Part shown: positions 2,223 to 2,365 of the stretch, piece by piece
How the letters are laid out: every line of letters starts with the position of its first letter
Numbering within the stretch: position 1 is the first letter of the stretch
Origin: an uncultured bacterium
GTDB taxonomy: Bacteria > Hinthialibacterota > Hinthialibacteria > Hinthialibacterales > Hinthialibacteraceae
Assembly: GCA_964516245.1 (NCBI GenBank)
Contig: CAZEZQ010000002.1
Coordinates: 1,678-26,462 of the forward strand
DNA: 24,785 bases
Reading direction: 5' to 3'
The notes under the pieces: model-generated
Database searches by the model: none
Told to the model about the DNA's origin: nothing
Seen by the model: the letters and a program-made list of their open reading frames with translations, nothing else
Program-made: the position numbers and the translations under genes

Positions 2223-2279
2223 GCAAAAAGTCTTTTTTTGGAGCGCAGGCGTCCCGCCTGCATCTAAATATAGAGCAGG
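2223..2279 (+). repeat. Copy A of a recurring ~57-bp motif: GCAAAAAG-TCTTTTTTTGGAGC-[GCAGGCG tcc CGCCTGC]-ATCTAAATATAGAGCAGG
   Basis: Seen directly. Conserved 5' flank GCAAAAAG, a 7-bp GC-rich stem (2245-2251 / 2255-2261) and a conserved 3' flank ATATAG(A/T)GCAGG. See copies at 2311-2365 and 16760-16816. Confidence 0.5.
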
Positions 2280-2310
2280 TATCCCAACTGTATCTATATA
2301 TGACGATTCG

Positions 2311-2365
2311 GCAAAAAGATTTTTTTGGAGCGCAGGCGTCCTCGCCTGCATCATCATATAGTGCA
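2311..2365 (+). repeat. Copy B of the same hairpin-containing motif (GCAAAAAG-ATTTTTTTGGAGC-[GCAGGCG tcct CGCCTGC]-ATCATCATATAGTGCA), 88 bp downstream of copy A
   Basis: Seen directly. It differs from copy A by single-base changes in the flank and loop only. Confidence 0.5.

Follow-up and report, generated by a model that had tools for sequence, protein, structure and literature searches.

The stretch analysed here (24,785 nt, hereafter the window; positions 1,678 to 26,462 of contig CAZEZQ010000002.1, GenBank assembly GCA_964516245.1) comes from an uncultured bacterium of the Hinthialibacterota and carries genes belonging to a cluster associated with a nonribosomal peptide synthetase (NRPS) and a polyketide synthase (PKS). 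Two of its intergenic regions contain a hairpin-bearing motif for which an initial annotation had reported three copies, two in tandem (A and B) and one further downstream (C). A repeat search of the window recovered all three as a family located at 2212-2279, 2300-2367 and 16749-16816, starting 10-11 nt to the left of the boundary first proposed. Copies A and B precede a gene encoding a small membrane protein (ATG at 2520) and an ABC transporter gene, and C lies between a divergent methyltransferase gene and the gene encoding a 416-aa protein. The motif corresponds, with a probability of roughly 45% in our estimate, to the left, conserved half of a palindromic repeat that is small (ca. 133-137 bp) and non-coding, has 18-nt terminal inverted repeats and resembles miniature inverted-repeat transposable elements (MITEs) or REPINs.

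In gapped alignments, the modules of A and B are 85% identical and each displays 71% identity with that of C. Local alignment of the two intergenic regions gave a score of 45, compared to 20.0 +/- 2.6 (maximum 32) for 500 dinucleotide shuffles (z = 9.5), so that the repeat cannot be attributed to chance. For the 74-nt module, a covariance model (R1) was built and applied without filters to the entire window; A, B and C scored 97.2, 91.5 and 93.3 bits and were the only full-strength matches. In 3/3 copies, GCAAAAAG and CTGCATC are 27 nt apart, although two compensating 1-nt indels separate A and B, and the distance from CTGCATC to ATATAG is 3 nt throughout. All three assembled copies have the same orientation and point to the downstream genes.

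The first 18 nt of the module, TGACGWTYCGGCAAAAAG, reappear in inverted orientation ca. 100 nt downstream at both loci, a feature that the initial annotation had overlooked. With up to 2 mismatches allowed, this 18-mer has 5 matches in the whole window, three on the plus and two on the minus strand, when 0.12 would be expected, and none of them falls outside these two loci (Table 1). B (2301-2433, 133 bp) and C (16750-16886, 137 bp) are therefore units bounded by inverted repeats, and each of them folds as a whole into a long imperfect hairpin (z = -6.0 and -8.7, respectively). Similarity between the two loci ends at the arms: the upstream flanks, the downstream flanks and the inner right part align no better than shuffled sequences, the observed scores being reached by 270/500, 279/500 and 48/500 shuffles.

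The right half of each element repeats the left module in inverted and degenerate form. For B, R1 gives a minus-strand match at 2375-2437 (18.6 bits) in which the arm and the ATATAG box align and the hairpin is deleted. The corresponding match of C (16791-16863, 22.9 bits, E of 0.0075 window-wide) makes use of the palindrome located at 16810-16830, and the two palindromes of this element can form a 25-bp helix (16775-16799 with 16811-16835; 25 nt, 84% complementary). The stretch of B that is the counterpart of the second hairpin of C (2362-2388) gave no fold, this second palindrome being degenerate in B and missing in A. Palindromes fitting (T)GCAGRCR-N3-4-YGYCTGC(A) number four in all: three are perfect and the other has a single mismatch. 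The order in a full element is thus arm, A/T tract, GC-rich hairpin, box (CTGCATC-N3-ATATAG-N-GCA), degenerate inverted module and inverted arm. Copy A is a solo left module, resulting from an 88-bp local duplication or from a partial copy; it lacks a separate right arm and shares that of B.

Table 1. Repeat elements and promoter-like sites in the window (positions are those of the window; 18-mer, TGACGWTYCGGCAAAAAG).
Feature	Position	Strand	Description
Copy A, left arm TGACAATCCAGCAAAAAG	2213..2230	+	2 mismatches to the 18-mer; 84% complementary to arm 2415-2433
Copy A, remaining left module	2231..2279	+	T-rich linker 2231-2244; hairpin GCAGGCG-TCC-CGCCTGC 2245-2261 (arms 2245-2251/2255-2261); box ATCTAAATATAGAGCAGG 2262-2279
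Copy A, -10-like TATAGA	2269-2274	+	inside box ATCTAAATATAGAGCAGG
Element B, left arm TGACGATTCGGCAAAAAG	2301..2318	+	0 mismatches to the 18-mer; 89% complementary to 2416-2433 over 18 nt; 97 nt between arms
Element B, left module	2319..2365	+	T-rich linker; hairpin GCAGGCG-TCCT-CGCCTGC 2332-2349 (arms 2332-2338/2343-2349); box ATCATCATATAGTGCA 2350-2365
Element B, TATAGT	2357-2362	+	inside box ATCATCATATAGTGCA
Element B, right half	2375..2433	-	degenerate inverted copy of the left module; arm TGACGAACCGGCAAAAAG 2416-2433, 1 mismatch to the 18-mer; box CAATATATAGTAATGC 2379-2394; hairpin missing
Element C, left arm TGATGTTCTGGCAAAAAG	16750..16767	+	2 mismatches to the 18-mer; 82% complementary to 16869-16885 over 17 nt; 101 nt between arms
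Element C, left module	16768..16816	+	linker; hairpin TGATGCAGACA-TCT-TGTCTGCATCA 16778-16802 (arms 16778-16788/16792-16802); box end ACATATAGTGCAGG
Element C, TATAGT	16806-16811	+	inside box ending ACATATAGTGCAGG
Element C, second hairpin GTGCAGGCA-AGA-TGCCCGCAC	16810..16830	.	inverted, slightly degenerate copy of the first; dG -11.1 kcal/mol
Element C, right arm AGACGTTTCGGCAAAAAG	16869..16886	-	1 mismatch to the 18-mer; arm-only R1 match 16865-16890, minus strand
Family M, two copies	~561-690, 12743-12898	opposite orientations	18-nt arms CAATGTCATTAACTTAAG/CTTAAGTTAATGACATTG, 100% complementary in the second copy; interior palindrome GGGAGGGCGAGGCTC...GAGCCTCGCCCTCCC
Element N	705-887		30-nt arms CCTTAATAAGCTGATCTTTACCCACAATTA, 93% complementary; inner 42-nt arms 746-787, 820-861
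Intergenic TATAG[TA]	2269, 2357, 2495, 5290, 5387, 16806, 16836, 17090	+	hexamer scan
Sigma-70-like promoter TTGACA-17-TATAGT	17067-17095	+	11/12 matches; 38 nt before ATG 17133; between C and the gene, outside the element

The motif is non-coding. An open reading frame (ORF) starts at a conserved ATG in each copy and stays open through the module, and the indels that distinguish A from B restore the frame, as might be expected of small protein-coding genes or leader peptides. These ORFs, which begin with MTIQQKVFF..., MTIRQKDFF... and MMFWQKVF..., have however inconsistent lengths (50, 23 and 86 aa) and unrelated tails; the differences between A and C are spread over the three codon positions (7/8/6), and the frameshift pair between A and B changes 9 residues. 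No protein homologue and no Pfam match were found for the ORFs of the modules, and the 50-aa ORF that spans A and B gave no paralogous copy. The coding hypothesis, which is hardly credible on these data, was rejected.

Bounds formed by inverted repeats, discrete ends, an inverted two-module build and no coding capacity together constitute the architecture of a DNA element that is repeated or mobile, and all of these are directly observed in B and C. Restriction to the lineage and the presence of similar repeat families in the window, both described below, belong to the same picture. Terminal inverted repeats, a short length without coding capacity and discrete ends are features of MITEs, and a short GC-rich palindrome repeated in intergenic DNA is a feature of repetitive extragenic palindromic (REP) sequences. 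MITEs and other palindromic intergenic repeats of bacteria include the Correia or NEMIS elements of Neisseria, the ERIC sequences of enterobacteria and the RUP elements of Streptococcus, while REPINs are inverted REP doublets mobilised by RAYT transposases. Like MITEs, the elements described here are non-coding, intergenic, ca. 100-200 bp in size, bounded by terminal inverted repeats and able to fold as a long imperfect hairpin; promoter-like boxes, conserved arms enclosing a diverged interior and the occurrence of several families in one genome are further points in common. Unlike MITEs, they have no visible target-site duplication and no known parent insertion sequence (IS) or transposase, and the three known copies are unusually diverged (71-85% identity). 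No similarity to a described MITE-type family was found, these families not having been searched by name. With REP sequences and REPINs they share a short GC-rich palindromic core set in AT-rich intergenic DNA, compensated pairing and no target duplication, and the two inverted palindromes of C (25-nt arms, 84%) can form a long hairpin as a REPIN-type doublet does. REPs however lack additional outer 18-nt inverted repeats lying ca. 100 nt apart and, unlike in REPINs, only a single palindrome is found in A and B, that is to say the second one is degenerate or missing; no RAYT gene occurs in the window.

According to this interpretation as a MITE- or REPIN-like repeat, the family would spread, or would have spread, as a DNA element recognised via its arms. 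These do not co-vary within an element, the left arm of B being equally close to the right arm of C and to its own partner, which is more in keeping with a conserved recognition sequence than with a helix formed in RNA. The hairpin, with the flanks at a fixed distance from it, would be kept for the propagation or recognition of the element itself, probably as a hairpin of single-stranded DNA or RNA, rather than for regulation of the downstream genes. The position upstream of genes would reflect insertions that are tolerated in intergenic DNA and, as a likely side effect, the TATAGT/TATAGA box may lend promoter activity.

Several observations weigh against such a repeat. No target-site duplication was seen in the flanks of B or C: the ends read ...CTATATA/TGACGA...TCGTCA/ATTCTAT in B and ...TGTAAA/TGATG...ACGTCT/ATAAAT in C (slashes separate flank and element), with no clean direct repeat. 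These flanks are AT-rich and the copies old, and a target duplication of 2-4 bp could have eroded. None of the ORFs of the window was found to encode a transposase, a RAYT or a recombinase, and, copy number being the key property of a mobile repeat, the copies known, all from the window, are three at two loci and in one orientation only. In addition, no copy has lost its perfect hairpin in spite of ca. 29% divergence; changes are compensated, stability is equal and spacing exact, which could also result from selection for a local function. Finally, both loci precede parts of a cluster that is contiguous in relatives, as a regulatory module would also explain. On balance, the repeat most likely adds a new family to the well-known palindromic intergenic repeats, rather than being a riboswitch-like regulator.

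Each copy contains a perfect GC-rich hairpin, the folding free energy (dG) of which is -14.1 (A), -14.6 (B) and -16.4 (C) kcal/mol as RNA and -8.6, -9.5 and -11.5 kcal/mol, respectively, as DNA. The stem of C had been described as completely different from that of A and B; 5/7 pairs are in fact invariant, and the other 2 read G-C in the tandem copies and A-U in C. In this last copy, the arms extend to 11 nt with 100% complementarity, and the four extra pairs offset the weaker A-T pairs so that stability is kept. The estimated chance that 4 substitutions would fall as two exact compensating pairs among 14 stem positions is ca. 0.002-0.02, the range depending on whether only transitions are allowed. 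The proposal that the structure is under selection holds in so far as the stems are perfect despite ca. 29% divergence and both changes, which are confined to C, are compensated with no broken pair; yet the same outcome was reached by 44/500 shuffles, and the three sequences represent effectively two lineages. Pairing within the hairpin is probably constrained, on data that are thin.

The initial annotation had further proposed that, in every copy, the 3' flank can alternatively pair with the 3' arm of the stem, giving two mutually exclusive foldings. Such pairing extends over 14 bp in C and, with a bulge, over ca. 8 bp in A, but it is limited in B to a 4-5 bp self-match of TGCA, so that this member has no real alternative helix. 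When the 5' arm of the hairpin was blocked, the best alternative folds of A, B and C had energies of -13.7, -7.1 and -17.2 kcal/mol, the unconstrained folds being at -25.7, -19.5 and -30.5 kcal/mol. The hairpin was also considered as an intrinsic terminator and rejected: the expected layout of a hairpin and then a U-run does not occur, since on the plus strand the T-run comes ahead of the hairpin and on the minus strand the hairpin is followed by an A-run, and a terminator scan gave no call. Around C (16650-17200), the scan detected no terminator-like site. At the other locus, a weak terminator-like hairpin with 3 GC pairs (ACGAAC-TTTTTGCCG-GTTCGT, followed by CAATTCTATTTTTT; 2411-2431) overlaps the right arm of B and has no counterpart at element C.

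These data bear on the idea, put forward in the initial annotation, of a cis-regulatory RNA in the 5' leader, in which an outer arm-arm helix would enclose the hairpin and a single-stranded AUAUAG and in which pairing of the 3' arm with GCAGG would switch expression. Such an RNA would account for predicted structures as stable as those of B and C, for two compensated hairpin pairs with none broken and for the common orientation towards functionally linked downstream genes. U-G wobbles in the outer helices, three on the plus strand versus one on the minus strand, are also in line with it, and the right arm of B could alternatively form the weak terminator-like hairpin just described, ahead of a T-rich sequence. 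As in attenuators and riboswitches, a stable hairpin with compensated changes lies upstream of linked genes, with a possible competing helix in 2/3 copies. On the other hand, the alternative helix is missing in B, a separate 3' partner is missing in copy A, C is without terminator or expression platform and is alone in having a second hairpin, and the outer helix of 17-18 bp is kept in sequence and does not co-vary. There is thus no conserved terminator/anti-terminator pair, and the elements lie probably upstream of the proximal promoter, the best predicted one being located between C and its gene. Searches of Rfam gave nothing at the gathering score, nor anything at E <= 10 beyond chance miRNA-like hairpins, and the motif is missing upstream of the homologous genes in every relative examined (protein identity of 49% or less). 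This combination of features does not support a switch of the attenuator or riboswitch type, and the leader RNA as a whole is regarded as improbable.

Promoter-like content was examined with a hexamer scan. Of the 11 TATAG[TA] sites on the plus strand of the window, 8 fall in the 11% that is intergenic, TATAAT not being so confined. These eight correspond to the three copies, to a second site in C and to positions just before the genes at 2520, 5407 and 17133, suggesting that TATAGT/TATAGA is probably the usual -10 hexamer of the organism. The ATATAG box is thus probably -10-like and the elements may have promoter activity, although the hexamers in the -35 position match poorly (CAGGCG in both A and B, CAGACA in C). 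B and C end 87 and 247 nt, respectively, before the start codons, and the downstream genes appear to have proximal promoters of their own: the best prediction (Table 1) lies downstream of C and a further promoter-like site, read by eye at 2472-2500, is closer to the gene at 2520. The earlier statement that the motif is always upstream of plus-strand genes is true at both loci, but nearly all genes of the window are on the plus strand. As for the two regions that had been proposed as degenerate relatives of the motif (5329-5396 and 22601-22632), neither gave an R1 match even at E <= 10 or contains the 18-mer; their common ground with the motif is restricted to A/T tracts and a TATAG-type -10-like hexamer, the latter frequent in the intergenic DNA here, and they were discarded.

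Alternatively, the motif might be a cis-regulatory module, consisting of a promoter with a palindromic operator, that was copied before two pieces of the rearranged NRPS/PKS-associated cluster and kept them co-regulated. In that layout, the A/T tract would be UP-like, TATAGT/TATAGA would serve as the -10 box and the GC-rich palindrome, centred near -28, would bind a dimeric regulator. The intergenic distribution of TATAG[TA], the hexamer that the best predicted promoter likewise uses as its -10, agrees with this, and so does the spacing GCAAAAAG-27 nt-CTGCATC-3 nt-ATATAG, which is identical despite two indels as promoter geometry would demand. The copies moreover all face the downstream genes, and the genes that follow the two loci belong to one uninterrupted run in relatives (small membrane protein and ABC transporter at one end, 416-aa protein and PAF-AH at the other). 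A duplicated promoter does not, however, predict the inverted 18-nt arm ca. 100 nt downstream, the loss of similarity at the arms or the inverted right halves, and it is not helped by the poor -35 positions, nor by separate promoter-like sites nearer to both genes. Symmetric base changes and a longer palindrome in C at kept stability would be unexpected of a protein operator, and none of the genes of the window was found to encode a regulator that has a DNA-binding domain. Such a duplicated module, layout included, is considered rather unlikely.

The inverted arms would also be accounted for by an inverton, in which a recombinase encoded elsewhere flips the 97-101 nt segment between the 18-nt repeats and turns the promoter-like box toward or away from the operon, resulting in phase-variable expression of the cluster. 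In known invertons, such as fimS of E. coli and the polysaccharide promoters of Bacteroides fragilis, inverted repeats likewise flank a short promoter-like segment upstream of operons and the repeat sequence is common to several loci. At both loci of the window, inverted repeats of 17-18 nt that have a common sequence surround a short segment with a -10-like box, no target-site duplication is seen, and both elements, oriented alike, are located ahead of operons. More than 75% of the invertons detected by PhaseFinder are shorter than 300 bases (PMC11602134), and a total of ca. 135 bp is within the usual size range. Inversion is nevertheless hypothetical here and would hardly serve a purpose in near-symmetric elements, B having the box both ways (2357-2362 on the plus and 2383-2388 on the minus strand). 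The 11/12 promoter is independent of the element, lying outside and downstream of C, and its gene would not need a switch; no invertase or recombinase family was found among the ORFs of the window, and the hairpin is left unexplained. These points make phase variation by inversion quite unlikely. Three known types of recombination site, attC, the hix-type invertase site and the Mpi repeat, were compared by consensus sequence and dropped, as their core motifs are unmatched and the right arm falls short of a complete palindromic site.

In a broader form, the regulatory alternatives amount to a lineage-specific cassette, either an invertible promoter or a hairpin-bearing promoter or leader module, that was copied before two separated pieces of the transport and lipid cluster associated with the NRPS/PKS in a deep-branching bacterium resembling the Planctomycetes-Verrucomicrobia-Chlamydiae (PVC) group and in which the hairpin is under selection for a structure that gates expression of the cluster. 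This is regarded as unlikely; were it true, it would exemplify either operon re-wiring through the copying of a control sequence or a biosynthetic cluster subject to phase variation, in a lineage of which very little has been sampled. Read as a palindromic intergenic repeat, the motif is ordinary biology. Hairpins found ahead of genes, even with "compensatory" changes, may turn out to form the core of a repeat element, and outer inverted repeats should be sought before an RNA switch is named.

The gene context was compared with that of relatives. The genes contiguous in these encode the small membrane protein, the ABC transporter, in some cases a PPTase, a Band_7 protein, a solute-binding protein, a 404-416-aa protein and PAF-AH, and the methyltransferase adjacent to C is cluster-associated in one relative too. 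That both loci precede cluster genes is suggestive but weak evidence for a link, 4/6 of the sizeable intergenic regions of the window being in this situation. The closest relatives are distant, with 47% (416-aa protein) and 49% (methyltransferase) protein identity, and a named match is a Verrucomicrobiota species at 43%. The homologous clusters of all retrievable relatives (60 kb) contain no R1 match, no 18-mer and no analogous segment flanked by inverted repeats. A search for the pattern GCAAAAAG-N22-34-CTGCATC-N2-5-ATATAG gave 17 matches in genome contigs and 12 in metagenome contigs, all of them hairpin-less chance matches, in two collections neither of which includes the source genome, and a pattern based on the arms gave 49 matches in viral contigs, none of which is related. 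As far as these comparisons extend, the motif is lineage-restricted. The viral searches also revealed an unrelated palindromic element of 123 nt in four viral contigs, with arms AAAAGTCTCGGCAAAAAG...CTTTTTGCCGAGACTTTT and with neither the hairpin nor the ATATAG box of the motif.

Other palindromic repeats occur in the window, the G+C content of which is 40.7%. At least three further palindromic elements bounded by inverted repeats were detected in its intergenic DNA, namely two copies of a second family (M) and one element of a different kind (N) that adjoins the first M copy (Table 1). Both types have the pattern described above for B and C, with near-perfect arms, a conserved internal palindrome and a diverged remainder, and no obvious target duplication was seen at M or N either. 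With at least five such elements in 2.8 kb of intergenic DNA, the genome would be unusually dense in inverted-repeat-bounded repeats.

With respect to gene order, the cluster is rearranged in the window when compared to all relatives, the regions concerned being 2520-4393, 13236-15850, 15867-16688, 17133-21509 and 21506-22547. It is interrupted by a block encoding SET, AdoMet decarboxylase, HEAT and HAMP proteins (4378-13235) and by the minus-strand methyltransferase gene. In the public record, the latter encodes 273 aa and starts near 16688 and not at 16709. The mechanically called ORF pairs 5407-8628/8411-10894 and 10891-11289/11219-12685 overlap by 218 and 71 nt, and the true starts of the HAMP protein and of a 488-aa protein are probably further downstream. 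Finally, the site at 22601-22632 lies in the divergent region between the synthase gene and a minus-strand MbtH-like ORF of 79 aa (22308-22547), which is located between the thioesterase and synthase genes and falls below the 80-aa cutoff used for ORFs; its family was assigned by eye and from the presence of an MbtH neighbour in the cluster of one relative.

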